This document shows, piece after piece, positions 7,511-30,921 of a DNA stretch of 64,000 bases (the first letter of the stretch is position 1; each line of letters starts with the position of its first letter). The DNA comes from Candidatus Falkowbacteria bacterium (GTDB lineage Bacteria; Patescibacteriota; Patescibacteriia; CAIXNZ01). The notes below the pieces were generated by a model. The model worked only from the letters and a program-made list of their open reading frames with translations, had not been told where the DNA came from and did not search any database. The DNA is taken from positions 67,522 through 131,521 of the forward strand of contig CAVZGV010000004.1 of NCBI GenBank assembly GCA_963774955.1. Direction: 5' to 3'. Both the position numbers and the translations under genes were made by a program.

Positions 7511-7515
7511 ACCAC

Positions 7516-9453: not shown

Positions 9454-9593
9454 TGTATATAAGACACTAAGAGGTTAATAACCAATATCCAAATTCCAAT
9501 AACCAAAAAATTTGAAGAAATAAAAAACTTCCATGTTGCAACCTCATATAGCCTCATAAAACTTGATAAAACATTATATAACCTATTAAACTT

Positions 9594-10265: not shown

Positions 10266-10347
10266 CGCTTTTTCTTACTTTTTTTTAACTTGACTTAGTG
10301 TATAAAATACACTTAAATATAAACTAACTAATTTAACCAACAAATCT

Positions 10348-12064: not shown

Positions 12065-12234
12065 AAATCCTTCTCCCCAGGAGCTGTGATTATGGGACAC
12101 GGCTCCTGTGACAGGAGGATATTATACCTTCGATTATCCAGATTGCTGGCATAAAGAAGGTAAAGGAAAGGTCTTTGAAAAAAAAGTATTGGGCTTCATT
12201 TCAACCAAACCAAACAAAAGGAGGTGGAAGTAAA

Positions 12235-12828
12235 ATGAAAAGAAAAAAGAACTTGCCCAAGCCGGTCAAATCCCAGCTGCGTATTATCGTGATCCGCTAC
12301 CGCAACAAACTCTATTTCCAGTTGGTTAACTTCCTATTCGACAAACTGGAAGCAAGAAATGTCAAGTATTTTTGCGGCAACGGCAAGATTACGGTTTTAC
12401 GTGACAGAAAAACCTTAGCCCGAATGGAATTTCGGGAAATCGAAGATGACCGAACCACAACCGATGGTTTCATTGAGCAATATCCCTGGGTGATCATGAA
12501 GCATGATGATTACTGCTTTTCGCGAGTACTTTTACCCCAATGGTTCAAACCAGGCGATATTTTACTCTTCAACTACACTACGCCGACTGACAAACTTTTT
12601 GCTCATCGGGTTGTGCCCGAAAAAATCACGCCCCAAGACGCAGCTGCCTATATGGTTTGGCCATATGCCTGGAGCATTTGTGCCTCAAAAGTCTACAATA
12701 ATTTAGGCAATCTGCTTTTGGGCAAACGCAAACAAGTGGATTTCAATTCCCTAATAGCAGCGTATACCCAAAAAGCTGTTTATCAGGGCAAAGAATTCCG
12801 AATCATTAACTTTTCCAAACTAGACTAA
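12235..12828 (+). CDS. hypothetical protein; first gene of GC-rich island
   Basis: GGAGG RBS before ATG 12235 (MKRKKNLPKP); GC jump at about 12200. Confidence 0.45.
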   Translation: MKRKKNLPKPVKSQLRIIVIRYRNKLYFQLVNFLFDKLEARNVKYFCGNGKITVLRDRKTLARMEFREIEDDRTTTDGFIEQYPWVIMKHDDYCFSRVLLPQWFKPGDILLFNYTTPTDKLFAHRVVPEKITPQDAAAYMVWPYAWSICASKVYNNLGNLLLGKRKQVDFNSLIAAYTQKAVYQGKEFRIINFSKLD

Positions 12829-12840
12829 AGGAGGACTGTC

Positions 12841-13446
12841 ATGAGAATCGAAGAGTACGCGAAATTGATAAGGACAGGACAGACAACGAAAAATCCTGTC
12901 ACGGGAATCTGCGGCCGAATAATTCGCGGCCAAAAACCGTCAGATTTTACCACCCTGACTGACGATCCTGAAAGAAAGATCGTCATGCTGGTGGATCCTG
13001 ACGGCCTGGCCAAATTGCTCGGCAAAACCGGATACCAAATGCTCATTGAAGTCGGCTACCAGCCGGATTACCTTGAGCATAAGGTCAAAGAAGGCAACCA
13101 ATTCAAACTGGCGGTCTTTCCCGAAGGCGGCGCTGCCCAGCTTGCGACCTGGGACAATGTCTTTGCCATGGTCAGTCAGGTCTATCCTGACATAACCTTC
13201 AGCACCCAGATCAAAAACGGCCTGAAGAAGCAAAGCTTTGACCAGATCGAAAAACAAGCCGGCTTCAAATTTCTTGAAGTGGAAAAAGCCGGAAAAAACG
13301 ATCCCCGCTTCATGACCTACAAGAAATTTAGAAATCCGGCCAGACCCTGGCCGACTTCCGCGCCTTCCTGTACTTCACCATCCATTTGCGTGAACTCTAC
13401 AGCGGCGACGGCTGGACCTATGACGACAAGGGCAATCGCGGAGTGA
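12841..13446 (+). CDS. hypothetical protein; C-terminal about 40 aa look out-of-frame (probable frameshift near 13325-13332 into the frame of the next gene)
   Basis: AGGAGG RBS; tail PARPWPTSAPSCTSPS is low complexity whereas the alternative frame from 13332 gives protein-like TLADFRAFLYFTIHLRELY and stays open to 13572. Confidence 0.35.
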   Translation: MRIEEYAKLIRTGQTTKNPVTGICGRIIRGQKPSDFTTLTDDPERKIVMLVDPDGLAKLLGKTGYQMLIEVGYQPDYLEHKVKEGNQFKLAVFPEGGAAQLATWDNVFAMVSQVYPDITFSTQIKNGLKKQSFDQIEKQAGFKFLEVEKAGKNDPRFMTYKKFRNPARPWPTSAPSCTSPSICVNSTAATAGPMTTRAIAE

Positions 13447-13571
13447 AAGAATACATCATCCCCAATCTGCCCATTGCCGACCTGGGTCCCAGCGAACTGA
13501 TCGACCTGGATATCCAACTGCCAACCGACATCAGCCCTGCCTTAAAAACAGGCAAAGAAAGGAGAACGACT

Positions 13572-14396
13572 ATGAAAAACCTGAAGATCCATATGCTGGT
13601 CATTGACCCGCAAAACGATTTCATGGACATCAATGGCGCCACCCTACCGGTGGCCGGAGCCAAAGATGACATGATCCGACTGGCGGGTCTGATCGACCGC
13701 GTCGGTCCCAAACTCGCGGACATCCATGTCACCATGGATAGCCACAGACTGCTGGACATCGCTCATCCCGCGTGGTGGGTGGACCAGAACCGGAACAACC
13801 CCGCACCCTTCACTATGATCACGGTCGACGACGTGGCCAACCGCATCTGGGTCCCGCGCAATCCCAACTTCTACGACCGCTGTCTGGCCTACGTCAAGGA
13901 ACTGAACCGCAAGGGCAACTACATGCTCTGCATCTGGCCGCCCCACTGCCTCATCGGCACCTGGGGACACAACGTATACCCCGAACTAAATGACGCTTTG
14001 CAGCTCTGGTCCGGCAAGGAATTCGCCATGGTCGACTACGTGACCAAGGGTTCCAACCCCTGGACCGAGCACTACGGCGCCATGGAAGCCGAGGTCCCGG
14101 ATCCTGAAGATCCCGGTACCCAGCTCAACACCAACTTTCTCAACATGCTGGCCGAGGCTGATATCGTCGCCATTGCAGGCGAAGCTCTCAGCCACTGCGT
14201 CAAAGCCACGGTTTCCCAGATCGCCGACAACATCGGCGAAGAGCACATCAAGAAGTTCCAGATCATCACCGATTGCACCAGCCCGGTCGGCGCCGTACCC
14301 AACGGCCCTGATTTCCCGGCCATTGCCCAGCAATGGTTGCTGGACATGCAAAAACGCGGCATGACCCTGGTCAAAGCCGACGACTTCCTGCGCTAA
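13572..14396 (+). CDS. isochorismatase-family cysteine hydrolase, nicotinamidase (PncA)-like
   Basis: MLVIDPQNDF, WPPHC, catalytic Cys context AGEALSHCV; AAAGGAG RBS before ATG 13572; frame is open upstream to 13332. Confidence 0.6.
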   Translation: MKNLKIHMLVIDPQNDFMDINGATLPVAGAKDDMIRLAGLIDRVGPKLADIHVTMDSHRLLDIAHPAWWVDQNRNNPAPFTMITVDDVANRIWVPRNPNFYDRCLAYVKELNRKGNYMLCIWPPHCLIGTWGHNVYPELNDALQLWSGKEFAMVDYVTKGSNPWTEHYGAMEAEVPDPEDPGTQLNTNFLNMLAEADIVAIAGEALSHCVKATVSQIADNIGEEHIKKFQIITDCTSPVGAVPNGPDFPAIAQQWLLDMQKRGMTLVKADDFLR

Positions 14397-14478
14397 ACCG
14401 GCAAACCCTGGGTTACCCCGCGTCGCGAGGTGACCCAGGGTAACCATCAATTTCCTAACCAAAGAAAGGAGAACGACC

Positions 14479-15234
14479 ATGCCACGCCTAATGGACAACG
14501 AAATGCAAGTTTCCAAAATTCCTGGAATGCAGGGATTTGCCTTCTCTGGCGTTCGGACCGAAAATCTCGGTGCCACCGAGTATACTCTGGTCACGATCGC
14601 GGTCGATGTTACCGGCTCGGTTGCCGGCTTTGAAAACGATCTGCGTAATTCGCTGATCGCCGCGGTCGAGGCCTGCAAAAAATCCCCGCGTTCCGATAAC
14701 CTGCTGTTACGGGTGATCATCTTCTCCACCAGCTACAAAAATGGGGTGGAAGAAATCCACGGGTTCAAACCCCTGGGTGAAATCGACCCGCAAGCCTATC
14801 CGCAGTTTCAGCCCGGAGGAGGCACTCCGCTTTTCGATGCCTGCTTCTCTGGCATCGGCGCCACCAACGTCTACGCCAAGAAGCTCATGGCCGACGATTT
14901 TCTGACCAACGGCATTGTCTTCATCATCACTGATGGCGAAGACAACGCTTCCCAGTCCACGCCCGCCATGATCAAGAAGGAAATCACCAAGGCCATCACC
15001 GGAGAAACCATCGAGTCCCTGATCACCGTCCTGATCGGCATCAACGCCAGCTACTGCAACCAAGCGCTGGATGATTTCCGCAATCAAGCGGGCATCAGCC
15101 AGTACATCGATGCCGGCCAGGCAACCAAAGGCAAGCTCGCTAAGCTGGCAGACTTCGTTTCTCAATCGGTTTCCAGTCAGTCCCAGGCTCTGGGTACTGG
15201 CGGACCGAGCCAGAAGATTTCTGCCACGATCTAA
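14479..15234 (+). CDS. vWA-domain protein (TerY-like) of a TerY-P triad
   Basis: MIDAS-like DVTGS, GGTPLFDA, IVFIITDGEDN. Confidence 0.65.
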   Translation: MPRLMDNEMQVSKIPGMQGFAFSGVRTENLGATEYTLVTIAVDVTGSVAGFENDLRNSLIAAVEACKKSPRSDNLLLRVIIFSTSYKNGVEEIHGFKPLGEIDPQAYPQFQPGGGTPLFDACFSGIGATNVYAKKLMADDFLTNGIVFIITDGEDNASQSTPAMIKKEITKAITGETIESLITVLIGINASYCNQALDDFRNQAGISQYIDAGQATKGKLAKLADFVSQSVSSQSQALGTGGPSQKISATI

Positions 15235-15351
15235 CAACCAAGGGAGATAATGGAGCAATCTGTTATCTCCCTATTTTTTCCCCACGTAGCGGGGTGAAAC
15301 CAGAAAGGCCCCGCCTACGCTAAAGCTTCTACGGACAAGGAGGTGAGATTC

Positions 15352-16227
15352 ATGATCCAGTTACAAACCGATCACTACTTCCACATTGGCAAAACGCACT
15401 TAACCAACGGTAAGCCTTGTCAGGATTATGCAATCTCACAGGTTATTAATGACGCAGCTATTGCGATCATCTGTGACGGTTGCTCTTCCGGCGGACAAAC
15501 CGATGTCGGCGCCAGGCTCTTAGGCTTAACCACCCAAGCTGCTTTGCTTAACCACTGGCTGACCAACGGCCAAATCATTCCGGAACCAACCAGCGCTGAA
15601 ATCAGGCTCAATCAAAAAATCAAACTAGCCTCTGCTTGTCAGCTTTTGGGACTGCAACCCAATGACTTGCTGGCCACCTGCGTTTACGCTTATTTCGGGC
15701 CGCAGGCCGGAATTATTCACATCCAGGGAGACGGAGTCGTTGCCCTCAAATTCACTGACCAACATATCCTGATGCACCGATTTGAGTGGCAAGACAATCG
15801 ACCCTATTACCCGGCTTATGCTGAAAGTCGCTTGGCTGATTTCATTGCCGCTCATGGTAATAATCTGCAAGCCTTACGTTTGAAATCCGAAACCTGGCAA
15901 ACCGTCGCGTCTCAACAACAGCTTTTACAGACCAACGACTACACGCTGAGCCAGGGACTGCAAGGCCTGATCATCAACTTGGACCAGACACTGATCAGCC
16001 AAGGGCTGGAATTCATTGCCGTCTTTTCCGACGGCGTCACCCAAATTGACAATGTGAATTGGCAAGACGCGGTGACTGAATTCCTCAGTTTCAAAAATAC
16101 CAAGGGTGAATTTGCCAAGCGCAGAATGATCCGCGGTATTCAGGATATGATCAAGGTTAATAAAGGTCCATTGGATGACATTGCTTACGCGGTAATTCGG
16201 TTGGACCAAAACCAAAAGGAGGTGTGA
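15352..16227 (+). CDS. PP2C-family Ser/Thr phosphatase
   Basis: IAIICDGCSSGGQTDVGARL and AVFSDGVTQ motifs; AAGGAGG RBS before ATG 15352. Confidence 0.55.
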   Translation: MIQLQTDHYFHIGKTHLTNGKPCQDYAISQVINDAAIAIICDGCSSGGQTDVGARLLGLTTQAALLNHWLTNGQIIPEPTSAEIRLNQKIKLASACQLLGLQPNDLLATCVYAYFGPQAGIIHIQGDGVVALKFTDQHILMHRFEWQDNRPYYPAYAESRLADFIAAHGNNLQALRLKSETWQTVASQQQLLQTNDYTLSQGLQGLIINLDQTLISQGLEFIAVFSDGVTQIDNVNWQDAVTEFLSFKNTKGEFAKRRMIRGIQDMIKVNKGPLDDIAYAVIRLDQNQKEV

Positions 16228-16228
16228 G

Positions 16229-17962
16229 ATGCCAACTATGCGTGGCAACATCGAAGTTGTCTTAGCCAACCGCGGAGCATTGACTCTGCGACCGGCGGAT
16301 CACGTTGCCACCGGGGGAGAAGGCTCGATTTATCGGGCTAAAAACACCATCATCAAATTGTATACTGACCCCAGAAAAATGAATCAGGATGGCATGGTTG
16401 AAAAGATCAAACTCTTATCAGCCATTAAGCATCCTTTCATTGTTTCGCCCACGGGGCTGGTAAACAATAATGCTGGTACTCCTGTTGGCTTTTACATGCC
16501 TTTTAGCGAAGGCGAACCCTTGCCCAGAGTTTTTACCAATGACTGGCGCAAACGCGAAAACTTTAATGACCAGCAGGCAAAAACTTTGGTTGACAACATG
16601 CGACAGGCAGTCGAAGTTGCCCACGCCAACCACGCGCTTTTAGTTGATGCCAATGAGATGAACTGGCTAGTATCTTTGGCCAAAGCAAATCAGCCCGAAC
16701 CCAGAATCATTGATGTTGATTCCTGGCAAATTGGACGCTTCCCGGCCAAGGTCATCATGCTGTCCATCCGCGATTGGCTCAATCCAAAATTTACCGAGTC
16801 GAGCGACTGGTTTAGCTGGGGAATTGTCACCTTCCAGGTCTTTAGCGGCATCCATCCTTACAAAGGAACACTGCCAGGCTACAAACCCAATCAACTTGAA
16901 GATCGCATGAAAGCCAAAGCCTCGGTCTTTTCCCAAGGTATTCAGCTGAATAAAGCGGTTCGGGATTTCTCAGTTATTCCCGGGCCCTTGCTCGACTGGT
17001 ATATTGCCGCCTTCCAGAACGGCGAACGGACCAAACCACCGTCACCCTTCGATTCCGGACTGACTCAAGCCAAAGTAGCCAGAGTACTGCATGCAGTTAC
17101 AACCGCAAGCGGCCTGCTGGTTTTCGAAAAACTATTGCAGCCGGTCAACGACCCAGTGATCAGAATCTTTCCTTGCGGCGTGGTCTTGCTGAATTCAGGT
17201 AAGCTGTTTGACTTACAAAAGCAATACCAAATCAGCACGGCCAAAACCAGGGACGTTGAAATCATCAGGATTGATAACGGCTGGCTCAAAGCCGAGATCA
17301 TTAACAAGCGGTTACAATTCAATTTCATCAATGCAACCAGCCTCAACGAAGAACCGCTTAAATTTGATCTGGCTGGTGAGAAGATCTTTCGCTGCGACAA
17401 TCGCTTGTTTGTCATCAATGAGCAAGGCCTGACCGAAGTGATCCTGAAATTCTTTTCCAAGCCGATCCTGGCTCTGGGCAAAACCTGGGGCGTGCTGGCG
17501 AATTCCATTCGCTGGTATGATGGCTTGGGCATCCAAAACACCATGGGTGCGACTTACATCATTGCTCCGTTCAATGACACTGCCTGCGCCGAAATCAGGG
17601 TGCCGGAACTTGATGGCTTAAAACCCATTAGCGCCAAAGCCGGTCAACGTTACATAGTTGTCATTGCTTTAGACAAGCAAGGCAACTACCAAAAAGTTGA
17701 GCTGACTCTGGATCGGGAATATAAAACCTACAAGGTCTGGCAGGAAATTGTTGACAGCCCTGATCTTAATCTGACCATCTTGCCAAAAGGTGTCTGCGCG
17801 ACAATTGTCAAAGACGGAGAGCTGAACATCTTTGTTCCGACCTCAAGCACCCAAAACACGGTCAAAGATAAAAACATCAGCACTGACATGCTTTTATACA
17901 ACTGGGAGAACAAAGTTGTTTATCTGCAAAACGGCGAAATCTGGGGCGTTAAAATGAAATAA
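16229..17962 (+). CDS. Ser/Thr protein kinase-like protein (N-terminal kinase fold, large C-terminal domain)
   Basis: Gly loop ATGGEGSIYRA, Lys in IIKLYTD, catalytic-loop-like HANHALLVDANEMNWLV. Confidence 0.5.
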   Translation: MPTMRGNIEVVLANRGALTLRPADHVATGGEGSIYRAKNTIIKLYTDPRKMNQDGMVEKIKLLSAIKHPFIVSPTGLVNNNAGTPVGFYMPFSEGEPLPRVFTNDWRKRENFNDQQAKTLVDNMRQAVEVAHANHALLVDANEMNWLVSLAKANQPEPRIIDVDSWQIGRFPAKVIMLSIRDWLNPKFTESSDWFSWGIVTFQVFSGIHPYKGTLPGYKPNQLEDRMKAKASVFSQGIQLNKAVRDFSVIPGPLLDWYIAAFQNGERTKPPSPFDSGLTQAKVARVLHAVTTASGLLVFEKLLQPVNDPVIRIFPCGVVLLNSGKLFDLQKQYQISTAKTRDVEIIRIDNGWLKAEIINKRLQFNFINATSLNEEPLKFDLAGEKIFRCDNRLFVINEQGLTEVILKFFSKPILALGKTWGVLANSIRWYDGLGIQNTMGATYIIAPFNDTACAEIRVPELDGLKPISAKAGQRYIVVIALDKQGNYQKVELTLDREYKTYKVWQEIVDSPDLNLTILPKGVCATIVKDGELNIFVPTSSTQNTVKDKNISTDMLLYNWENKVVYLQNGEIWGVKMK

Positions 17963-17975
17963 CGCCCAACGGGGG

Positions 17976-18013
17976 GAGAAATTGTACCACGTTACAATTT
18001 CTCCCCCACTTCT
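17976..18013 (+). terminator. rho-independent terminator after kinase gene
   Basis: ggggagaaattgta...tacaatttctcccc hairpin. Confidence 0.6.
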
Positions 18014-18290
18014 TTCTTCATAAAATTGCGACCAAAAATATTTTGGTCATAATTTTATACTTTAATCTGAGATTAAAGTGAAACTAAGTTCTTTAAAACT
18101 TATACTCAAAACATATTTTACCCCTCCTTGGGGGTTTGGGGGGCCGAACTAAGCGTCGTGATCAAAACCACGAACGAACCATATGCACTAGCGCATTGAG
18201 GCCCCCCAAAACTTTTTGCATACTTTTTTGTTCAAAAAAGTATGAAGCCGAAGGCTTAAAGTTCTCAGAACCTGAAAGGAGGACCTAATC

Positions 18291-18488
18291 ATGGAAACCA
18301 CCAAACACAACCGGGAAGTGGTCCAAAGAGTGGGCGACTTGGTCGTAGACCTGTCTAACGAAGTCGATCCGCTGCCCATGTCTGAACCGGCCAAAGAAGC
18401 CATGGTCATGGTCATGGTTGCCAACTGCCTAAAAAGCCAGGGCAACATTGTTACCTTTTGTCTGCCAACCTTCAAGACTGGCTTATAA
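18291..18488 (+). CDS. small hypothetical protein (65 aa)
   Basis: AAAGGAGG RBS; preceded by AAAGTTCT box; followed by terminator 18557-18603. Confidence 0.45.
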   Translation: METTKHNREVVQRVGDLVVDLSNEVDPLPMSEPAKEAMVMVMVANCLKSQGNIVTFCLPTFKTGL

Positions 18489-18769
18489 CCAAGGCAATCT
18501 GAGACAGACAAAAAACTTAAATTTTCAGCTAATTTAAGCTGAAATGTTTTACTAGCACCATTAGCGGGGAAAGTCGGTTTTCACCCCGGCTTTCCCCCTT
18601 TTTAAAACCTTGACAAATATAACATATTTTGATAAACTAATAAGTCGTCTTTTACCTAATCTTAGACGAGCAATAGAAAATTTTAACTAAATAATTTTGG
18701 TTAAATTTTTCTGGCTTTGACTCAGTCAAAACCACAGTCCTTTAAACCTTAATTTAAGGGAGAAATCCT

Positions 18770-19405
18770 ATGCCAAAACAAATCATTGCCGTCGGCGGTT
18801 CAGCGGCTAATCCGCCTCACTTGGGGCACTTAGCTTTGATCCAAGCCATGTTACAATCAAAAAAATTTTCCAAAGTAATGTGGATCCCTTCCGGGGTGCG
18901 CCCGGACAAGCCTGACTTCATTGATCCGCAACATCGCCTGGCCATGACTGAACTGACACTGCAATCGATTACAGACAAAAGATTCATTTTGAATCCCAGC
19001 GATGTTTATGGCAAAAACATGCCGACCATCAAATGGATGGAGATTCTCAAGGAACAAAATCCCCAAGCGGAAATTGTCTGGTATACAGGCGTTGATTCTG
19101 TTGTGCCGCAAAAAAAATTCGGCGGCCTATGTAAAATTGAAGCGCGCTGGCAACATGGGGAAAAATTAATTAAGAATTTTAAATTCCTAATTATCCCCCG
19201 CGCCGGTTATCCGCAGCCTTCAACTTTCAAAATTCCTCTTGAGGATTATGAAATCCTGGATGTGGAACTGCCTGACATTGCCAGTTCAAAAATTCGAAAA
19301 CTTGTTCAAGGAGGTAACAGCGATTTTGAAAAACTAGTAACGCCTGAAGTTTCCGCCTATATCAAGGTTAACAAACTTTACGGATGGAAAGGAGAAAAAG
19401 CATGA
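18770..19405 (+). CDS. nadD: nicotinate/nicotinamide mononucleotide adenylyltransferase (NadD-like)
   Basis: GGSAANPPHLGHL (HxGH nucleotidyltransferase motif), about 210 aa. Confidence 0.65.
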   Translation: MPKQIIAVGGSAANPPHLGHLALIQAMLQSKKFSKVMWIPSGVRPDKPDFIDPQHRLAMTELTLQSITDKRFILNPSDVYGKNMPTIKWMEILKEQNPQAEIVWYTGVDSVVPQKKFGGLCKIEARWQHGEKLIKNFKFLIIPRAGYPQPSTFKIPLEDYEILDVELPDIASSKIRKLVQGGNSDFEKLVTPEVSAYIKVNKLYGWKGEKA

Positions 19406-20007
19406 GCAAAGCAGTGATCACTATTGGCGAAAGCGACGCCCTGACCATTGTTGACGGGCAAAATGATTTCATCTTGCAGACCGGAACTCTTTATGTGACC
19501 GGAGTGGAAGGTGAAACCGACAACGAGGAAATCATCAAACGAATCCAGGAACTATGGTCAAAATTTTCAACCTGGAGAACCACGACTGAAGATTTCCATC
19601 CCGAGAATCACGTGGAACACACGATTTTTGGTCCCCATTGCATTGAAGACACCGCCGGCCAGGAATATCATCCTGACCTGATGAAAATATATGAGGACGC
19701 TGATCTAAATCTATATAAAGGCGAAAATCCGGACATTATTGCCTATTCAATTGCAACCAGCCCTGATTTTCATGACCACATTTCCGATTTGCGCCAACAT
19801 GGCATCAAGAGAGTCTTTCTTGTCGGCTGGGCTTTCACCCATTGTGTGGGGGAATCGGCCATTGCCTATGCGACCCAAGGGTTTGAAACCTTTGTCTTCC
19901 GCGATCTGTCCCGGAGCGTTCCTCCGCCCTATGGCGATCCGGATGCAATGACCAAAAAGCTGGAACTCTACGGGGTCAAGCTGATCACGTCTGACCAAAT
20001 CGCTTAA
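19402..20007 (+). CDS. pncA: nicotinamidase PncA (isochorismatase family)
   Basis: LTIVDGQNDF, GPHCIEDTAGQEY, catalytic Cys in LVGWAFTHCVGESAI; ATG 19402 overlaps nadD stop. Confidence 0.7.
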   Translation: MSKAVITIGESDALTIVDGQNDFILQTGTLYVTGVEGETDNEEIIKRIQELWSKFSTWRTTTEDFHPENHVEHTIFGPHCIEDTAGQEYHPDLMKIYEDADLNLYKGENPDIIAYSIATSPDFHDHISDLRQHGIKRVFLVGWAFTHCVGESAIAYATQGFETFVFRDLSRSVPPPYGDPDAMTKKLELYGVKLITSDQIA

Positions 20008-20232
20008 ACACTCAGGGTGAGTCCGATTAATTTCGGACTTACCCTTTAGAAAAATGTAACTAACCGCGTTGTCATGGTGAGTCCTTCGACAAAGCTCAGG
20101 ACAAGCATAACGAGTTTATGGTGAGCCAAGCCGAACCAAACCATGACATTACCCCCGCTCATTTGGTTCCATTTTTCTTCTCTCAAACAGGTTGAGAGAG
20201 AAAGTTCTTTCGAAAAACAAAGGAGAAATAAG

Positions 20233-21165
20233 ATGAAGACTCATAACTATCTCTGGCATGCCTTTGGAATGAACGGGAAAATTCTTAATTGGTGGCCTGC
20301 AGAAAAGAGTAAATTTTCAGCGCCACAAGTTGAACTGGACATTTCTGACATTCAATCCCAGCTTTTTGAGAAGGTGGGTGAGTGGGTAGGAGTTAAGGAA
20401 TCTGAAAATCTTGAAGATGAAGAAATGATCACCCAGCATGTGCTTGAAACTTACCAAGCCTGGGGCAAATTCGGACCTTATGGTGATTTAATCCAAATCT
20501 CCTATGATAGAGACCAGCGCAGAGCGCATATCGATTTCATCGGCCGCCTGGCCTTCCCCAAACCAGCCCTGGCTGCTGACCTGCTTCCGATCATTCGTGA
20601 CGCTGCAGGAAATTTGTTCTTCATCGGCATCACCAGAAAAAAAGAGCCTGGAATCGGCAAACCCGCCTTGATCGGCGGACATCTCGACATCAAAGGCTAT
20701 CATCTAGAAACCGCAGCCGAAGCCCTGATTCACGAAGCCAAAGACGAAGTCGGGCTTAAAATTACAGTAATGAAGCAACATGCGCGCGAAATAAAAACCA
20801 AGCCCTATATGCCCAGGATTCCTGTTTCAGTCGGCTTGAAGGGCTATCCCAAACTGCCAAGCGAACTGCTTCTGGTCGGAACTTTTGAAACCTCGGCCGA
20901 AGAAAAGCTGCTGCATCTGGGTACAAGGCGAGTTTCCCAAACCACAGCTTACACCATGATCATCGACATCCGTGATCGAATATTAACTCCAGATGATGTC
21001 GCTAAGCTGTTTTCCGCCGGAGATGATGCAGCCAGCATCTTTGTTCATCAAATCACAAAAAATCACTGGCTATTCGATTTATTCAATCGCGCCATCTATC
21101 ATCATCAAACGATTTATGTGGCAGCACTGTCACAACTCCGCCGAGAGAGCATAATCAACATCTAA
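20233..21165 (+). CDS. hypothetical protein with degenerate Nudix-like box
   Basis: ETAAEALIHEAKDEVGL resembles Ex7REUxEExGU; AAAGGAG RBS. Confidence 0.4.
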   Translation: MKTHNYLWHAFGMNGKILNWWPAEKSKFSAPQVELDISDIQSQLFEKVGEWVGVKESENLEDEEMITQHVLETYQAWGKFGPYGDLIQISYDRDQRRAHIDFIGRLAFPKPALAADLLPIIRDAAGNLFFIGITRKKEPGIGKPALIGGHLDIKGYHLETAAEALIHEAKDEVGLKITVMKQHAREIKTKPYMPRIPVSVGLKGYPKLPSELLLVGTFETSAEEKLLHLGTRRVSQTTAYTMIIDIRDRILTPDDVAKLFSAGDDAASIFVHQITKNHWLFDLFNRAIYHHQTIYVAALSQLRRESIINI

Positions 21166-21342
21166 AACCCAGGGTGATTCATCAAAGTTACAAACTGCGA
21201 TGAATCACCCTTAGAAAAATGCACCCAAACGCTTCTGTCATGGTGAGCATAGTCGAACCATGACGGGACATCCGCTGATTTGGTTCCATTTTTCTTATCT
21301 CAAGTATCTTGAGGTAAAAGTTCTTTACAAAGGAGTACCAAG

Positions 21343-22128
21343 ATGAAAAAAATATTTGTACTGGCTAAAAGAGATGACCAGCCTAAATTTGTCAAAGCCA
21401 AAGAAGAAATTATCGACTGGCTGCGCCAAAAAAACTGTCTGGTTACTGAAACCAAACAAGCTGAACTTATTTTGGTCTTGGGAGGTGACGGCACCATGCT
21501 CAAAGCGATCAGACAACATGGAGTCAAAGGGATTCCGTTTTGTGGTCTGAATTTCGGCCATAAGGGCTTTTTGCTGAACGAATATAAGCGCGGAGTACTA
21601 ACCCAAATCATGAAAAACAAACTGGAGTACATCACCGCGCCTCTTCTGCAGGCCAAACTATTCAACCGCAACGGCCAGGAACTGGGTTTGATTTATGCTT
21701 TCAATGATATCTACCTGGAACGCAGTACCACCAACACCGCCAAACTGCACATCACTGTCGGACAAAAAATCCGCTTTGATCCCCTGATTGCTGATGGTGT
21801 GATTGTTTCCAGCGCAGCGGGCTCTACTAGCTACAACGCCTCAGCCGGCGGCGTAGTTGTGCCGATTGAAACCAACAGTCTGATTTTGACGGGAATTTGT
21901 CCGGCCATTTTCCACCAGTGGAAAAGCAGCCAATTGGCGGCTGACAGCACCATTACCATCACAGCCACGGAACTGGACAAGCGTCCGGTTCGTCTGGTTG
22001 CCGACGGTGAAGAAGTGAAAAACGCAGTCAAGGCTGTCATTTCCTATTCGGACCAAAAAGTCCGGATCGCTTTTGTCACCACCCAGGATTTCCGGAGCAA
22101 AGTTCTTAACCTGCAATTTCCTGAATAA
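21343..22128 (+). CDS. nadK: NAD kinase
   Basis: LVLGGDGTML (GGDG), NDIYLER, 261 aa. Confidence 0.8.
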   Translation: MKKIFVLAKRDDQPKFVKAKEEIIDWLRQKNCLVTETKQAELILVLGGDGTMLKAIRQHGVKGIPFCGLNFGHKGFLLNEYKRGVLTQIMKNKLEYITAPLLQAKLFNRNGQELGLIYAFNDIYLERSTTNTAKLHITVGQKIRFDPLIADGVIVSSAAGSTSYNASAGGVVVPIETNSLILTGICPAIFHQWKSSQLAADSTITITATELDKRPVRLVADGEEVKNAVKAVISYSDQKVRIAFVTTQDFRSKVLNLQFPE

Positions 22129-22140
22129 AGGAGGCTACAA

Positions 22141-23376
22141 ATGGCTATCATCTCTTCCCTGCTGGACACTGACTTTTACAAGTTCACCATGGGTCAACTG
22201 GCTTTTCTCTTTTATCCGGACATCGAGGTGGAATACACCTTCAAGTGTCGGAATAAGAATTTCCGGCTGGCTGACTTTATCAACCAGGATCGGCTCCGCG
22301 AGGAACTGATCGCCACCAGAGCCCTCAAGTTCAAGCACAGCGAGTTGCACTACCTGCGCGGCACCAATGAATATGCGGAACGCATGTTCAGCGAACCCTG
22401 GCTGGAGTTCCTGAAAAAAATGGACATGCCTGAATTTGAACTCCTGTCTGTCCAAGACGGCAACATTGTCTTGAGCTTCCGCGGTAAATGGCCCGAAGCC
22501 ATTTACTGGGAAACTCTGGCCCTGTCCATCATCAATGAGCTTTATTATGAAGCTCTGATGAAAAACATGACTGCTTTCAAAAAAGACGTCATTCTCAGCC
22601 AAGGCAAAATCCGGCTGGACGAAAAGATCAAAATGCTCAAAACCAGACCTGATGTTACTTTCATCGAGTTCGGCACCAGACGCAGATTTTCCCGGGACTG
22701 GCAGGACTATGTGGTTCAGGCTCTCAAGTCTGAACTTAAGCCTAGCCAGTTCCTCGGAACATCCAACACCTACCTGGCCATGAAGCATGACCTGATTCCC
22801 ATGGGCACTTCGGCTCACGAAGTGTACATGGCCTATTCCGGCATTTATCATGGCAGCGACGAGGAAATCCTCGCATCCCACAACAAGTCTCTGCAGGAAT
22901 GGTGGGATCTGTACGGCTTCGGCTTATCCGTTGCCCTGACAGATACTTACGGCTCGGACTTTTTCTTCCGCGACATGACAGAAGAGCAAGCCCGCAAATG
23001 GAAAGGCCTGCGTCAGGATTCCGGCGATCCTATCGTCTTTGGTGAAAAAGCCATCAAGTTCTACGAGAACTATGGCATTGATCCCAAGACCAAGCTGCTC
23101 ATCTTTTCCGATGGCCTGGATATCCAGACGATTTTCAAGATTGCTGATCACTTCAAGGACCTGATCAAGGTGTCCTTTGGCTGGGGCACGAACCTCACCA
23201 ACGACTTAGGCCTCAAGCCTTTGTCCATGGTCATCAAGCTGACCAAATCCAACGGCCATGGCACAGTCAAACTTTCCGACAATCTGGCCAAAGCCATGGG
23301 CTCTGACTATGATGTCGAACGTTTCAAACGCATCTTCGGCCACACCGTGACCGACAGAATTGATACGAAATACTAA
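22141..23376 (+). CDS. pncB: nicotinate phosphoribosyltransferase
   Basis: N-terminal SLLDTDFYKFTMGQ signature of PncB family, 411 aa. Confidence 0.75.
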   Translation: MAIISSLLDTDFYKFTMGQLAFLFYPDIEVEYTFKCRNKNFRLADFINQDRLREELIATRALKFKHSELHYLRGTNEYAERMFSEPWLEFLKKMDMPEFELLSVQDGNIVLSFRGKWPEAIYWETLALSIINELYYEALMKNMTAFKKDVILSQGKIRLDEKIKMLKTRPDVTFIEFGTRRRFSRDWQDYVVQALKSELKPSQFLGTSNTYLAMKHDLIPMGTSAHEVYMAYSGIYHGSDEEILASHNKSLQEWWDLYGFGLSVALTDTYGSDFFFRDMTEEQARKWKGLRQDSGDPIVFGEKAIKFYENYGIDPKTKLLIFSDGLDIQTIFKIADHFKDLIKVSFGWGTNLTNDLGLKPLSMVIKLTKSNGHGTVKLSDNLAKAMGSDYDVERFKRIFGHTVTDRIDTKY

Positions 23377-23424
23377 AAACCTGGCCCTCCGTATTTCATC
23401 AACGTTAGCGAACTTCGGAGGGCC

Positions 23425-23504
23425 CTCTACTCAAATTATTTTTAGGTGAACCAAAATCCAGAATCTATAATCTAGAATCTAGAATCCAAAAAAATAATTT
23501 AGGC
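23425..23504. repeat. intergenic inverted-repeat module, family A copy 1
   Basis: CTACTCAAATTATTTTTAGG ... (AATCTAGA)n ... AAAAAATAATTTAGG; preceded by terminator hairpin 23383-23424. Confidence 0.8.
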
Positions 23505-23542
23505 GGAGAAAGTTCTTTTCAAAAAAACAAAAGGAGAAAATC

Positions 23543-24694
23543 ATGCAAGTAGTTTACGCAGGTGAAAAAATTCCAACCAGCTGGAAAAAATCCATTTTCC
23601 TGGCTGGCCCAACTCCCCGAGACAAAAATGTTGTCTCATGGAGACCTGAAGCTTTGGCCATCTTACAGGCCAAAGGTTATGATGGCGTAATTTTCGCTCC
23701 GGAAAATCGGGACGGTCAGTCCAGACCCAATTATAATGACCAAGTCGAATGGGAAAACGAAGGACTTAACCGCACCGATGTTATTTTGTTCTGGGTACCG
23801 CGGGAACTGAAAACCATGCCCGCCTTTACCACTAATGTGGAATTCGGCGAATGGTTCAAATCCGGCAAAATCGTTTTGGGCTTTCCCCAGGACGCGCCCA
23901 ACATGAGATATCTGGAAAGCAAGGCCAAAGCTTTCAACGTTTCCTGCGCAGATACGCTGGAGGCAACGATTGATCTGGCCTTGAACATGCTCGGCGCCGG
24001 CGCGGATAGAAATAACGGAGAAACCTATGTGCCTTTACACATCTGGCAGACACCGGCTTTCCAAAACTGGTACCAGAATCTCAAAGCAGCCGGTAACCGG
24101 CTGGACTCAGCTCGAGTCGAGTGGGTTTTCCGCGTTGGTCCCAAGAAAAACTTTGTTTTTCTCTGGGTCCTGTATGTTGATGTTTTCATTACCAAGGAAA
24201 ACCGCCACAAAACCAACGAAGTCATTCTGGCTCGCCCGGACATTGCCACCATCCTGATGTACAAACCCGCAAAAATTTTGCTGGAAACTGAGATTGTCCT
24301 GATCCGGGAATTTCGCAGTCCGGTTTCCAACTCTGACGGCTATGTCTGGGAAATCCCCGGCGGTTCATCTTTCAAACCGAAAGAAGATCCCAACAAACTC
24401 GCAGCGCATGAAGCTTTTGAAGAAACCGGGATGGAAATTCTAGCCGAACGTTTCAAAGCAATCGATGCCAGGCAACTCTGCGCCACACTGTCCACTCACA
24501 AGGCTCATCTGTTTGCCGTGGAAGTAACCGATGATGAAATCAATTGGTTACGCCAGCAGCAAGGAGTTGCTCACGGCGTAATCGAAGACACGGAACGCAC
24601 TTACGTGGAAATAAAAACCCTTCAAGAAATTCTGGCTCAGAATCTGGTTGACTGGAGCATACTCGGCATGATCCTCTCAGTCTTAATAAAATAA
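23543..24694 (+). CDS. fusion of nucleoside 2-deoxyribosyltransferase-like domain and NUDIX hydrolase
   Basis: KSIFLAGP Rossmann-like N-terminus; C-terminal Nudix box GGSSFKPKEDPNKLAAHEAFEETGM. Confidence 0.55.
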   Translation: MQVVYAGEKIPTSWKKSIFLAGPTPRDKNVVSWRPEALAILQAKGYDGVIFAPENRDGQSRPNYNDQVEWENEGLNRTDVILFWVPRELKTMPAFTTNVEFGEWFKSGKIVLGFPQDAPNMRYLESKAKAFNVSCADTLEATIDLALNMLGAGADRNNGETYVPLHIWQTPAFQNWYQNLKAAGNRLDSARVEWVFRVGPKKNFVFLWVLYVDVFITKENRHKTNEVILARPDIATILMYKPAKILLETEIVLIREFRSPVSNSDGYVWEIPGGSSFKPKEDPNKLAAHEAFEETGMEILAERFKAIDARQLCATLSTHKAHLFAVEVTDDEINWLRQQQGVAHGVIEDTERTYVEIKTLQEILAQNLVDWSILGMILSVLIK

Positions 24695-24737
24695 ACTCTT
24701 TAGGCCCAGTACCGAGCTTTGCTCTGGTGCTGGGCTA

Positions 24738-24813
24738 TCTACTCAAATTATTTTTGTTAATCAAAATCTAAAATCCATAATCTAGAATCTATTATCTACA
24801 AAAATAATTTAAG
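24738..24813. repeat. intergenic inverted-repeat module, family A copy 2
   Basis: CTACTCAAATTATTTTTG ... AATCTA repeats ... CAAAAATAATTTAAG; terminator hairpin 24703-24735. Confidence 0.8.
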
Positions 24814-24861
24814 TAGGGATAGTTCCTTAAATTTTAAAGAAACACAAAAGGAGAAATAAAG

Positions 24862-25680
24862 ATGACCATGCCGAGAGATTTAATTTTGGTTCGCCACGGA
24901 CAGTCCGAAGGCAACCTGGTAATTATGCAATTGGAAAAGCAAGGACTGCCAGTGCCGGATGAATATTACCGCAAGCACACAGCTCACTGGCGTCTGACCA
25001 GCAAAGGAGTACAGCAGGCGGAAATAGCAGGACAATGGCTGCGGCAGAACTTGGTTACCGAATTTGACCGCTACTATGTTTCTGACTATGTCAGGGCCAA
25101 AGAAACAGCCGCCTTACTCGGGCTGAAACAGGCTTCCTGGGGCATCAACATTTACCTTGGCGAACGCAACTGGGGTATTATGGATCGATATACTGAAGAA
25201 GAAAGAAACAAAATCTTTGAGATTGATTTAGTAACCAAGAAGATCCACCCCTTTTACTGGACCCCGCCCCGCGGCGAATCCATGGTTCAGCTGTGCCTGC
25301 GTCTGGAAAAAGTCCTGGAAACTCTGCATCGCGAATGCGCTGATGGCCGGGTTATTCTAGTCTGTCACGGCGAGGTAATGTGGGGCTTTCGGATCATTCT
25401 GGAAAGAATTCCTCCGGACAAATACGTGAAACTTGATGAATCCAAAAATCCTTTTGACAGGATTCACAACTGCCAAATTCTGCACTACTCGAGAAAAAAT
25501 CCCGGCACTGGTCAGCTTTCTGACCATCTCGACTGGATGAGGTCTCTTTGTCCGACGGATCTGAGTTTATCTGCCAATGCCTGGCAAGAAATTAGCCGAC
25601 CGCGGTTTACCAACGAACAGCTGCTGAAACATGCAGCCAAATTTCCTCGGGTAATCGATAATCAGGAGGAAAAATCATGA
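24862..25680 (+). CDS. histidine phosphatase superfamily (phosphoglycerate mutase-like) protein
   Basis: LILVRHGQSEGN (RHG motif). Confidence 0.7.
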   Translation: MTMPRDLILVRHGQSEGNLVIMQLEKQGLPVPDEYYRKHTAHWRLTSKGVQQAEIAGQWLRQNLVTEFDRYYVSDYVRAKETAALLGLKQASWGINIYLGERNWGIMDRYTEEERNKIFEIDLVTKKIHPFYWTPPRGESMVQLCLRLEKVLETLHRECADGRVILVCHGEVMWGFRIILERIPPDKYVKLDESKNPFDRIHNCQILHYSRKNPGTGQLSDHLDWMRSLCPTDLSLSANAWQEISRPRFTNEQLLKHAAKFPRVIDNQEEKS

Positions 25681-26639
25681 TTGACAAAATCGCTCACGGC
25701 CAGGGCCAGATGAGAGCCCAGTCTTTTTCCATTCAGGTTTCTGACCGGGAAAAATGCAATGCGGGCTGCAAATTTTGCATCTCGCGCACCACGCCCGGAG
25801 ATTCCCAAAGAATTCTGATTCCAAAGATGCAAGAGACAAAACCCAAGCTCTGCGACTTTGACCGCCTTAAAATCGGCCTGAATTATGCCAGAAGTCTGGG
25901 TGCAACTCATGCTATCCTGACTGGCAAGGCTGATCCGCTTCAGGAGCCGACCGAAGAGCTGTGCAAATTGCTTCAGCTCTGCCGGGAATATCTGCCGCTC
26001 GCGGATATGCACACTAATGGATTACTCCTCCATCCTGAATTCAATAGAGGAAATGACCTGACCCAGCTCAAACAAGCGGGTTTAACCATGATCACTATTT
26101 CTCTGGCATCCTTCAACGAGCAGCAGAACTTTGAACTGATGCGCATCAAAAAAAGCGCCGCTGACCTGATTAAACAAGCAGCGGATCTTGGCCTGCTGGT
26201 GCGCTGCTCCCTGGTCGTCAATGCTCAGGGAGTCGCTGATGTGGCAGGCGTGATTGATTATTGCAGACAAGCCGGTGAGCTCGGCGCTCATATGGTCGTG
26301 GTTCGCGAAGTCTGGGTGCCTGAAATCTATGGCGAGCGCAACCTGGGAGTCTACGATTGGAACAAAACCAATAAGATCAACATCAAGCCGATCCAGGACC
26401 ATTTCATTGAAATTTGCCATAAGAAAAATGATTTTGGCCTATGCCAACTTGATCCTTTGCCATGGGGCACTCCGGTCTTTGGCATGGCCGGTGTCTTTAC
26501 CAATCAAGATCACGGGGTAAACATCACCTTTGCCTGTTGTGACGAAGGCACCACCGGTTCGGTCATCAAGTCTATCGTGCACAAACCCAACGGCCACGGT
26601 TACGGTAATTGGGATCATGGTGGTCGTATCCTTTATTAA
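25677..26639 (+). CDS. radical SAM enzyme of unknown specificity
   Basis: CNAGCKFC (Cx3Cx2C); AGGAGG RBS; ATGA overlap with upstream gene. Confidence 0.6.
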   Translation: MIDKIAHGQGQMRAQSFSIQVSDREKCNAGCKFCISRTTPGDSQRILIPKMQETKPKLCDFDRLKIGLNYARSLGATHAILTGKADPLQEPTEELCKLLQLCREYLPLADMHTNGLLLHPEFNRGNDLTQLKQAGLTMITISLASFNEQQNFELMRIKKSAADLIKQAADLGLLVRCSLVVNAQGVADVAGVIDYCRQAGELGAHMVVVREVWVPEIYGERNLGVYDWNKTNKINIKPIQDHFIEICHKKNDFGLCQLDPLPWGTPVFGMAGVFTNQDHGVNITFACCDEGTTGSVIKSIVHKPNGHGYGNWDHGGRILY

Positions 26640-26676
26640 ATTTTTAGGGCGAATCCCGCGACGCAGGATTCGCCCC

Positions 26677-26778
26677 TCTACTCAAATTATTTTTAGGTAA
26701 TCAAAATCTAGAATCTATGCCGCGTAGCGGCATCCCGCTTCGCGGGAAAACCTAAAATCTAACTAAAAATAATTTAGG
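26677..26778. repeat. intergenic inverted-repeat module, family A copy 3 (with extra GC hairpins in the centre)
   Basis: CTACTCAAATTATTTTTAGG ... gccgcgtagcggc / cccgcttcgcggg ... CTAAAAATAATTTAGG. Confidence 0.8.
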
Positions 26779-26851
26779 CGGAGACAGTTCTTTTCAAAAA
26801 CATTTAACCAAGTCGCCGTCGCTAAAGCTATGGCGACTAAAGGAGAAAAAA

Positions 26852-27859
26852 ATGAGCAGAGACAAAGTAAGAGCCATGTTTTTGGGAGTGGCCATCGGCG
26901 ATGCCCTGGGCATGCCAGTGGAAACAAAAAACTTTTTGGAAATCGAAACTGAGCATGGCCGCGTAACAGATTATCTGGATCCCGGTAACCATAAATGGTT
27001 CAAAGGGTTTCAGCGCGGACAATGGACTGATGATACCCAAGCCACCTTGGCTGTGCTCACATCCCTGATTATTCAAGGCAAAATTGACTTGGCTGATATG
27101 GCTCAGAGACAGATAGACACAATGAACGAATGTTCAAAGGGCTGGGGACGCAGCACCAAAAACTCTCTTCGTGCAGTTGAACGCGGGGTTCACTGGCTGA
27201 AATCAGGTAATCCCCAGGGAGCCGGCAATGGCGTGGCCATGAAAATCGCGCCGCTGGCAGCCTATCTGGCCGCTCCCAATACCGATCATGCCATTGCCGA
27301 AAATGTTGCCGAACTGGCACTGATGACCCATCAGACTGACATGGCGGTACTTTCCGGCTTTGTCCAAATGCACGCTTTGTCATATTGCCTCAATTGCGTC
27401 GACGAAAATCGCCCTTTTTCCGCCGAAGGTCTGTTACAGTATGTTCTGCGCTACGGCAAAGCAGTCAAAGTCATGCTGCGCGAAAAAAAATATCAGCTGA
27501 CCTATCTGCAGGAGGATTTCCTCGGCCGCTTTGCCGCAATGATGTGTCTGTTTGATGAATTCAAGCAGATGACACCGGCCAAATTGGCCGAATGTTACGG
27601 CGGCGCTGACTGCTATGTTTACAATTCGCTGCCATTCACCATTGCCATGTTCCTGCGCAATCCGCATTCCATTGAAACTCTTTACGACACGGTCAATGCC
27701 GGCGGCGACACAGATACCAATGGTTCCATGGTCGCTGCTCTGCTCGGCAGCCTTAACGGCACCAAGATTTTCCCAGCGCATCTGATTGACGGCCTGTGGC
27801 AGAAAGACCGGATTCTCCAGGTCGCCAATGACTTCTGCGACCGTTTCCAAATCAAATAA
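26852..27859 (+). CDS. ADP-ribosylglycohydrolase (ARH/DraG family)
   Basis: AIGDALGMPVE and AGGDTDTNGSMVAALLGS signatures. Confidence 0.8.
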   Translation: MSRDKVRAMFLGVAIGDALGMPVETKNFLEIETEHGRVTDYLDPGNHKWFKGFQRGQWTDDTQATLAVLTSLIIQGKIDLADMAQRQIDTMNECSKGWGRSTKNSLRAVERGVHWLKSGNPQGAGNGVAMKIAPLAAYLAAPNTDHAIAENVAELALMTHQTDMAVLSGFVQMHALSYCLNCVDENRPFSAEGLLQYVLRYGKAVKVMLREKKYQLTYLQEDFLGRFAAMMCLFDEFKQMTPAKLAECYGGADCYVYNSLPFTIAMFLRNPHSIETLYDTVNAGGDTDTNGSMVAALLGSLNGTKIFPAHLIDGLWQKDRILQVANDFCDRFQIK

Positions 27860-27900
27860 ACTCCCGAGGCGTGAATTCCTAAATTCAGGAGTTCACGCCT

Positions 27901-27973
27901 CCTAACTCAAATTATTGTTCCGCCCAAAAATCTAAAATCTAGAACCTAAAATCCAACAATAATTTAAGTTAGG
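27901..27973. repeat. intergenic inverted-repeat module, family A copy 4
   Basis: CCTAACTCAAATTATTGTT ... AACAATAATTTAAGTTAGG (19-bp inverted repeat) flanking AATCTA repeats; terminator 27866-27901. Confidence 0.8.
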
Positions 27974-28022
27974 AGGGAAAGTCCCTTAACAATTTTAAAA
28001 AATACCAATAGGAGGTTTTCAG

Positions 28023-28934: not shown

Positions 28935-28947
28935 AAAGGAGTTCAAG

Positions 28948-30915: not shown

Positions 30916-30921
30916 GCTTTA

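Follow-up and report, generated by a model that had tools for sequence, protein, structure and literature searches.

A conserved BoxA-like box, possibly an RNA signal, reiterated through accessory operons of a Candidatus Falkowbacteria bacterium

Introduction

What does a short box do when it recurs in the leaders and spacers of a cluster of nicotinamide adenine dinucleotide (NAD) salvage genes in a member of the candidate phyla radiation (CPR, or Patescibacteria)? These bacteria account for a large share of bacterial diversity and rely on salvaged cofactors, and to our knowledge almost nothing is known about how their genes are regulated. The box, AAAGTTCTTT, was found in a 64,000-nt stretch (the window) of contig CAVZGV010000004.1 from a Candidatus Falkowbacteria bacterium (assembly GCA_963774955.1, positions 67,522–131,521 of the forward strand); coordinates below are those of the window unless a relative is named. 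A preliminary description had reported it upstream of plus-strand genes of a GC-rich island and proposed one island-specific promoter or regulator-binding element, such as an alternative sigma or phage-type promoter or the site of a common repressor. We find that the shared box is very likely regulatory, and the sequence is best read as an RNA module resembling BoxA that recurs along accessory operons of this bacterium.

A shared, sense-oriented box in two GC-rich operons

The repeated box is a real element of the window and not a product of chance. The exact pattern AAAGKYCTTT occurs six times against 1.73 expected, and none of 100 shuffles reached six. Reading of the spacers, looser patterns and a position matrix gave (A)GTYCYTT with an A-rich tail as the conserved core, and not AAAG..CTTT; the leading AAAG of the motif first described, AAAG(T/G)(T/C)CTTT, is unconserved in orthologues. 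A census of GTYCYTT on both strands yielded 43 matches, 14 intergenic and 29 in coding DNA, corresponding to densities of 0.58 versus 0.28 per kb per strand, and 12 of the 14 intergenic matches are in the sense direction of the next same-strand gene (binomial p=0.0065). The box lies at most 120 nt upstream of 8 of the 18 island genes, compared with 1 of 46 other genes outside a second operon near 47 kb (Fisher p=7e-5), and this lone match is a terminator tail. Its reported absence from core-gene upstream regions was borne out for pilB, tsaD/tsaE, polA and ychF.

Twelve good copies were identified, nine in the GC-rich island and three in a minus-strand operon of orphan genes (47.7–45.9 kb), all sense-oriented and 23–204 nt 5' of a start codon. 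The most upstream, AGGTCTTTGAAA (12169–12180, +), lies 65 nt 5' of the first island gene (12235), and a stem-loop at 12127–12160 ends 9 nt before it. The best copy, AGTTCTTTAAAA (18087–18098, +), is in the leader of a small open reading frame (ORF; 18291–18488), with a perfect 19-nt hairpin (18060–18078, +) ending 9 nt upstream. The nadD leader carries AGTCCTTTAAAC (18736–18747, +), and further plus-strand copies are found in the spacer between pncA and the next gene (AGTTCTTTCGAA, 20203–20214) and upstream of the genes for NAD kinase (AGTTCTTTACAA, 21319–21330), a deoxyribosyltransferase-Nudix protein (AGTTCTTTTCAA, 23511–23522), a histidine phosphatase (AGTTCCTTAAAT, 24821–24832), an ADP-ribosylglycohydrolase (AGTTCTTTTCAA again, 26786–26797) and a Prs-like protein (AGTCCCTTAACA, 27980–27991). 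On the minus strand, AGTTCTTTAAAG is present in the 5' leader of the orphan-gene operon (47610–47621) and in one of its internal spacers (47055–47066), and AGTTCTTTATAA in another (46493–46504).

All eight sites of the preliminary description carry the motif with the sequences given for them. Two island copies (18087–18098 and 18736–18747) had been missed, and the one at 18258–18268 (AAAGTTCTCAG, +) is doubtful, being degenerate, placed within a palindrome (GTTCTCAGAAC) and not found at the orthologous position in either of two close relatives (L001 and L036, introduced below). The distance from the G of the box to the start codon is 23–65 nt for eight island copies and 203 nt for that at 18088, so the earlier figure of 15–35 nt upstream of the ribosome-binding site is only roughly right. 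Enrichment in the island was confirmed; exclusivity to it was not, given the three copies in the minus-strand operon. What the two regions have in common is a foreign-looking composition. Coding GC is 0.48–0.49 in the island (12235–30915) and the orphan operon (45961–47571) versus 0.38 in other genes, and the Shine-Dalgarno (SD) sequence is strong in 16 of 18 island genes and three of four orphan-operon genes (19 of 22), compared with SD-like sequences in 9 of 46 others (Fisher p=4e-7). The idea of one shared, oriented cis-element marking such operons was thus upheld.

The box is predicted to be transcribed and follows stem-loops

Promoters, terminators and folds are predictions throughout. 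The stretch from nadD to nadE (18770–30915) looks like a single 12-kb transcription unit, because a TG-extended sigma-70-type promoter (TTGACA-17-TAAACT, 18610–18638, +), conserved in L001 and L036, stands in front of it and the canonical terminators, defined by a GC stem with a U-run directly after it, fall at 15241, 17972, 18566 and 30921, the last of which (30921–30945, +) closes the unit. The other best sigma-70-type site is at 31063, beyond the island. Within the unit, the box is found in the leader and in all six spacers longer than 100 nt, and the genes that have no spacer (overlapping or 2–14 nt apart) have no box. The orphan-gene operon starts at a TTGACA-17-TATACT promoter (11/12; 47680–47708, −) and stops at a genuine terminator (45912–45888, −) that ends in GGTTCTTTTAAT. 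In both places, the box is 3' of the best promoter-like site of the region: 18610–18638 precedes the copy at 18737 by ~100 nt, and the −10 box of 47708–47680 (−) precedes that at 47620 by 60 nt. In two distantly related CPR contigs, the only strong promoter-like site also precedes the box (17466–17494 before 17518 in L037; 4824–4852 before 4943 in L038). Based on these locations, the box is predicted to be transcribed.

The long nadD–nadE spacers share one order of parts: a GC-rich hairpin after the stop codon, a second stem-loop, the box 1–6 nt further on, an A-rich stretch of 11–52 nt and a strong SD. The post-stop hairpin at 23383–23424 (+) directly follows the stop codon, has no adjacent U-tract and was not terminator-like in the scan, nor were its equivalents at 20014–20045, 21171–21211, 24703–24736, 26647–26675 and 27866–27901 (+). 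Two families of this second stem-loop can be distinguished. Four plus-strand examples belong to family A, ahead of the copies at 23511, 24821, 26786 and 27980: at 23425–23508, where an imperfect ~19-bp stem with a loop of AATCTAG-type heptads ends 3 nt before the box; at 24737–24820; at 26676–26783, with two extra GC hairpins in the loop (26700–26750); and at 27898–27976, with arms CCTCCTAACTCAAATTATTGTT and AACAATAATTTAAGTTAGGAGG. Family B occurs twice (20180–20198 and 21297–21315, +), with the copies at 20203 and 21319 directly after it. Over all nine island copies, a stem ends 1–9 nt upstream of the box.

Between a weak promoter-like site (18026–18053) and the 65-aa ORF 18291–18488, a leader of 230 nt (within 18026–18290) is predicted to adopt a very stable fold, in the order hairpin 18060–18078, perfect BoxA-like box and long G/C-rich helices (GGGGGGCC...GGCCCCCC). 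Terminators flank this leader on both sides (17972 and 18566); L001 retains it, and no Rfam family matches it.

Conservation of the stem and the box in relatives

The closest public relative of the window is a Candidatus Parcubacteria metagenome-assembled genome (L001, 83% protein identity); the contig L036 shares 72% protein identity. Eleven family-A copies from the window, L001 and L036, paralogues and orthologues together, were aligned after the arms had been cut out by anchors. The stem has 19 pairs, with 90% of cells paired versus 35–54% when the partner arm was slid, and 8 of the 19 pairs have changed on both sides, with a covariation score of 0.354 versus 0.156 (0 of 500 shuffles). The family-A stem is real. 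Its loops, by contrast, consist of tandem heptads that span 8–69 nt between genomes, of AATCTAG type in the window (23446–23495, 24760–24800, 27920–27950) and L001, and of AGTTGTA or GCCATAA type in L036 (5340–5390, 8620–8675), where the stem is kept by compensatory changes. The likeness of the window's heptads to TAGAAT/TATAAT-like −10 boxes is therefore unconserved, and tandem −10 boxes in the loops were ruled out.

The 7-mer of the box is identical in all four orthologous family-A spacers of L036, including the variants GTTCCTT (orthologue of the 24821 copy) and GTCCCTT (orthologue of the 27980 copy), while the preceding three bases vary in all but one of these spacers (L036 has AACG, ACCG and ATTG in place of the leading AAAG) and the loops are unalignable. 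In the 23511 spacer, L036 matches the window exactly over the ~46 nt that run from the 3' arm to the SD. L001 has the 18088 copy unchanged (4177), and the NAD-kinase copy (21319) is kept in both L001 (7413) and L036 (3073). The nadD-leader copy is degenerate in both orthologues (GCACTTT and GCACCTT), and one copy in each of L001 and L036 reads GTTCATT. The box also stands in leaders of NAD genes in the distant CPR contigs L037 and L038, which differ in GC content. L037 (GC 0.54) has GTTCTTTG twice plus a tandem copy, one before pncB and the tandem pair before a peptidase gene, and L038 has GCTCTTTGA before a nicotinamidase-like gene.

An Rfam 15 scan of the window returned only tRNAs at gathering score and none of the NAD+ riboswitches, and at E<=10 only noise-level matches were obtained across 17.9–28.1 kb; known structured RNAs, including the NAD+ riboswitches, were ruled out on this absence of covariance-model matches. 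The nadA and pnuC motifs are, like the box-bearing modules, leader RNAs of NAD genes, and the pnuC motif acts at the SD; they differ from the modules in that the box also precedes orphan genes unrelated to NAD and the loops are unconserved. A pattern scan for the family-A element in 241 million metagenome records gave 34 loci, all chance matches in AT-rich DNA, and none was found in 2.9 million viral contigs, where two motif-context sequences matched only as coding-sequence coincidences. Unlike a mobile repeat (miniature inverted-repeat transposable element or integron attC site), family-A elements are at orthologous positions in L001 and L036, and no integron integrase gene adjoins them.

Likeness to BoxA and a possible mechanism

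An RNA signal is more likely than a promoter or repressor site because the box lies inside predicted transcripts, just after stem-loops, and matches BoxA. On sequence grounds, we put the following reading at somewhat short of an even chance: the box is an RNA element, and hairpin plus BoxA form nut-like modules, reiterated in accessory operons, that recruit NusB and S10. The gamma-proteobacterial BoxA consensus is GYTCTTTAANA (PMC5725501). Against this consensus, which may not be that of the host, the copy at 18088 scores 11/11 with no mismatch, and those at 21320, 47620, 47065 and 46503 each score 10/11. NusB and NusE (S10) read 8 nt of BoxA, with G2, C5 and U6 as critical bases (C6 in Aquifex, GGCUCCUUGGCA), and a double-stranded RNA site contiguous with the BoxA site is seen in the crystal structure of the pair (PMC3177189). 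In all 12 copies, G2 and C5 are kept and position 6 is U or C. In Escherichia coli rrnH, BoxA reads TGCTCTTTAACA in the leader and TGCTCTTTAAAA in the spacer, both after a hairpin and with A-rich sequence next; when scored with a matrix built from the window copies, the leader BoxA ranked third and the spacer BoxA first on the sense strand. We take GTTCTTTGAAAACTGAAT to be the spacer BoxA of Firmicutes and Mollicutes. It is contained in the 16S-23S spacer of Mollicutes, where it serves as a PCR primer (PMC4312986).

The known BoxA sites of rrn operons and suhB thus share with the box the core N-G-Y-U-C-U/C-U-U followed by A-rich sequence, the sense strand of transcripts and a stem-loop directly upstream. 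Regulation of genes other than rRNA, such as suhB and a ParE-like toxin gene, by BoxA at less than 50 nt from the start codon has been reported, and prsA was among the few recurrent targets (PMC5725501); the window's boxes are likewise ~20–65 nt from start codons, and the Prs-like gene of the island carries one. The differences concern number, targets and sequence. Here, seven copies occupy a 12-kb protein-coding operon and three a 1.8-kb operon, compared with 0–7 per whole genome in published scans (PMC5725501); they accompany metabolic and orphan genes instead of rRNA or Nus genes; and position 3 of the window box is U instead of C. The lambda nut sites resemble the modules in being bipartite, a single-stranded box with an adjacent hairpin in the nascent RNA of accessory or foreign-looking operons. 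However, the order here is hairpin then box, as in rrn, while lambda has box then hairpin; there is no N-like protein or phage gene here; and the ~19-bp hairpins with variable heptad loops differ from boxB, a 15-nt GNRA-like hairpin.

Under the BoxA reading, the box RNA, AGUUCUUUAAAA, would be the ligand of the NusB-S10 heterodimer, which would bind both the unpaired box and the helix next to it while each module is being transcribed by RNA polymerase. Together with NusB-S10, NusG and NusA could then convert or re-arm the elongation complex, as at the nut-like sites of rrn leaders and spacers, and the re-armed polymerase would pass the GC-rich post-stop hairpins and escape Rho across the 12-kb operon. 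As the box lies 11–52 nt from the SD, binding of the same complex might in addition reduce initiation of translation, in the manner of E. coli suhB. If the box is BoxA, the bacterium's own rrn leader or 16S-23S spacer would be expected to show AGUUCUUU(A/G)AA after a hairpin. C-richness relative to G is a property of Rho loading sites, and the island mRNAs are C-rich over G ((C−G)/(C+G) of +0.057 versus −0.063 in other genes, p=3.5e-6), which lends weak support to a Rho-escape mechanism; this richness was not found in the 47-kb operon.

Several observations weigh against BoxA. The consensus is a short AT-rich word, and GYTCTTTAANA with up to one mismatch has 27 matches in the window against 18 expected; the specificity of the box therefore comes from position and conservation, not from count. 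Some copies depart from the consensus around positions 3–4 (GTCC, GGTC), with G at position 3 in one copy and C at position 4 in two, and the AANA tail is only loosely preserved. The nearest hairpin is 16–22 nt from the box in the three copies of the 47-kb operon, the predicted unpaired probability of the box (0.12–0.67) is not consistently high, and the relatives L040 and L042 (62–65% identity) have similar spacers that lack the box. One processive antitermination site per operon should suffice, and seven need a further rationale. No rRNA, and with it no rrn BoxA of this lineage to compare, turned up when the window and ~295 kb of fetched loci were scanned with Rfam. No G/U-rich boxC follows the box in the copies read, which are A-rich up to the SD and have no element like UGUGUGGG of E. 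coli rrnH; nusB, nusG and rho are not encoded within the window; and we found no literature on BoxA or NusB in CPR bacteria. CPR rRNA genes often carry homing-endonuclease introns, and a query for them with an I-CreI-type (LAGLIDADG) homing endonuclease returned four contigs, all chloroplast or mitochondrial.

If the boxes are BoxA, no denser use of sites for Nus factors would be known except in rRNA operons, and what suhB exemplifies would apply to an entire metabolic operon; the boxes would also offer a testable handle on the control of NAD recycling in a reduced genome (12-nt RNA, NusB-S10 binding, readthrough). If they are another RNA signal, the box is still a conserved and easily searchable marker of these operons. 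A broader and more doubtful proposal is that Patescibacteria keep a separate expression regime for portable accessory operons, which would be GC-rich, have strong SDs and carry hairpin plus BoxA at the leader and at every long cistron boundary. In that case, the Nus antitermination and chaperone machinery, classically devoted to rRNA, would load anew at each gene and in this way drive, or gate, an NAD-salvage operon of 12 kb. The contrast between SD-using, GC-rich accessory operons and an SD-poor core bears on the expressibility of transferred operons in new hosts.

Alternative explanations

Among the alternatives to BoxA, the one we consider least improbable, though on balance it seems unlikely, is a leader element of mRNAs peculiar to this lineage, with a role in translation or RNA processing that does not involve Nus factors. 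It could be a pyrimidine-rich anti-SD mimic that pairs with AAAGGAG, an S1 or standby-type enhancer for SD-led genes where most genes lack an SD, or a cleavage or 5'-stabilizing signal by which the polycistronic RNA would be cut into stable monocistronic pieces, in which the long family-A stems would be RNase III-type sites as in the T7 early operon. UUCUUU can indeed pair with AAAGGA, the box pairs with the SD in the minimum free energy folds of several copies, and the pairing probability is 0.82 at 18737, 0.59 at 24822 and 0.40 at 46503; in 9 of the 12 copies, however, it is at most 0.23, and this inconsistency rules out an SD-sequestering hairpin. Pairing with the SD would also leave the invariant G and the following U unexplained, and the box stands anywhere between 11 and 93 nt from the SD. 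Only the strong-SD operons contain the box, and conservation between the window and L036 covers the whole stretch from the 3' arm to the SD, yet nine SD-bearing genes elsewhere in the window and the translationally coupled island genes have no box, and an AU-rich enhancer would not keep the 7-mer identical while the A-rich tail drifts. As for processing, each box-bearing nadD–nadE spacer has a post-stop GC hairpin that could protect a processed 3' end. The RNase III hairpins of the T7 early operon and stabilizers of the repetitive extragenic palindromic type resemble this arrangement in the stem-loops of each long spacer and the GC hairpins after stop codons, but no conserved single-stranded box lies downstream there.

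A DNA signal appears more unlikely still, be it part of an internal promoter read by an alternative sigma factor or an alternative polymerase, or the operator of a common repressor such as NrtR or a TrmB-type regulator. In its favour, most island genes with a spacer of their own have the box upstream, many copies are preceded at 2–8 nt by a purine-rich (T)AGG, some copies have a weakly palindromic AAAG-NN-CTTT, nrtR is adjacent to the island and a TrmB-family gene is divergent from the 47-kb operon. The promoter version conflicts with the position of the box, which is 3' of the best sigma-70-type promoters in the four cases above and repeatedly inside operons, and with the lack of any −35/−10 partner at fixed spacing (the TAGG-to-box distance itself varies), and on these two grounds the promoter reading was rejected; the loop heptads that recall −10 boxes are unconserved, and promoter-like sites overlap boxes only at the weakest level (9/12; 27 versus 19.9±3.6 in shuffles, no excess). 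As regards a repressor, the operator of the NrtR family is a 21-bp palindrome with a GT-N7-AC core that overlaps promoters (PMC2330246). Two near-identical 20-bp palindromes (TWGTGTATAWAAKACACTWA) with this core, TTGTGTATATAAGACACTAA upstream of nrtR (9451–9470, +) and TAGTGTATAAAATACACTTA overlapping the pnuC-nadR promoter (10296–10315, +), are likely NrtR operators, judging from their sequence. The pattern derived from them matches 9451 and 10296 only, with none in the island, and a scan for GT-N7-AC 21-mers found 10295 upstream of pnuC and, within the motif set, only the degenerate copy at 18256. The box shares with NrtR operators its place upstream of NAD salvage genes with nrtR adjacent, but it is a one-sided 7–8-mer, unrelated in sequence to the palindromes, whose AAAG half is unconserved. 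It does not fit an NrtR operator, and the common repressor first suggested is unlikely because the box is one-sided, in a single orientation, atypical for a dimeric repressor site, and within transcripts.

The hairpin and UUCUUU could also be a weak intrinsic terminator or attenuator, or a functionless passenger in duplicated or gene-converted spacer repeats, which we find about as improbable as a DNA signal, or slightly more so. A permissive terminator scan lists the family-B modules at 20178–20200 and 21295–21317, with AAGTTCTTT next, the genuine terminator of the orphan-gene operon ends in GGTTCTTTTAAT, and the spacers clearly form paralogous families. Yet only these two modules, with three GC pairs each, pass the scan; in most copies, an A-rich spacer of 3–9 nt comes between stem and U-rich run, whereas the organism's real terminators have the U-tract directly at the stem. 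The modules do not fit a canonical intrinsic terminator, as the U-tract is not within 0–2 nt of the stem in the other copies. A passenger is hard to reconcile with a box that is common to unrelated spacers (families A and B, the 47-kb operon and singletons), is conserved better than any other part where the loops of orthologues have turned over, and recurs in non-homologous leaders of distant CPR contigs. Chance recurrence of an AT-rich word in AT-rich upstream DNA is the least credible explanation by far: the modest excess of loose consensus matches and the 29 coding occurrences of GTYCYTT would fit it, but the excess of the exact pattern, the orientation bias, the enrichment in the island, the constant place after hairpins and the identity in orthologous spacers do not.

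Gene content of the island and neighbouring features

Contrary to what had been proposed, the island genes are not otherwise unrelated: the high-GC stretch of 12.1–31 kb is a coherent cluster for NAD salvage and ADP-ribose metabolism. It encodes two isochorismatase/nicotinamidase-like proteins, NadD, NAD kinase, PncB, a nucleoside-deoxyribosyltransferase-Nudix fusion, a histidine phosphatase, a radical-SAM protein, an ADP-ribosylglycohydrolase, the Prs-like protein and a glutamine-dependent NadE, as well as a PP2C phosphatase and a protein kinase; the gene preceding these two is vWA-like by eye, without a Pfam hit. Directly upstream, in low-GC DNA, are nrtR (9594–10265; Pfam NrtR_WHD, 1.4e-25), pnuC and nadR. 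Since there is no strong promoter or terminator between nadR and 12235, transcription from the pnuC promoter may extend into the first island genes. The gene set and order of the island recur in the CPR contigs L036, L037, L038 and L040, and the anchor protein has more than 2,000 homologues, of which those with a taxon name all belong to CPR lineages.

In L037, the cluster is broken up by defence or toxin-type genes (HEPN_AbiV, SocA_Panacea, Fic and KilA-N), and the PP2C and kinase genes have a TrmB-family gene upstream of them. Judged by eye, the first three genes called beyond the island in L036 likewise lack an SD-like sequence. Two spacers of L040, a relative at 65% identity (2983–3107 and 4263–4386), keep the GC hairpin; in place of the box they have GGCAGGAGGAAATT, which resembles an additional SD and precedes the real one by ~35 nt. 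The low-GC part of the window contains mobile-type genes, namely an IS200-like Y1 transposase (5433–6047), a GIY-YIG gene abutting tRNA-Glu (7256–7588) and a tyrosine recombinase (52824–53636). An unrelated metagenome contig that had matched the family-A pattern by chance, L018, has a group I intron at 12539–12797 (Rfam RF00028, 60.5 bits). The minus-strand operon (45888–47708, −) consists of four small orphan genes, with an elevated GC content (0.434 overall), and the gene for the TrmB-family regulator divergent from it lies at 47838–48581. The 135-aa product of this operon has a single relative, 99% identical, among 5.8 billion proteins.

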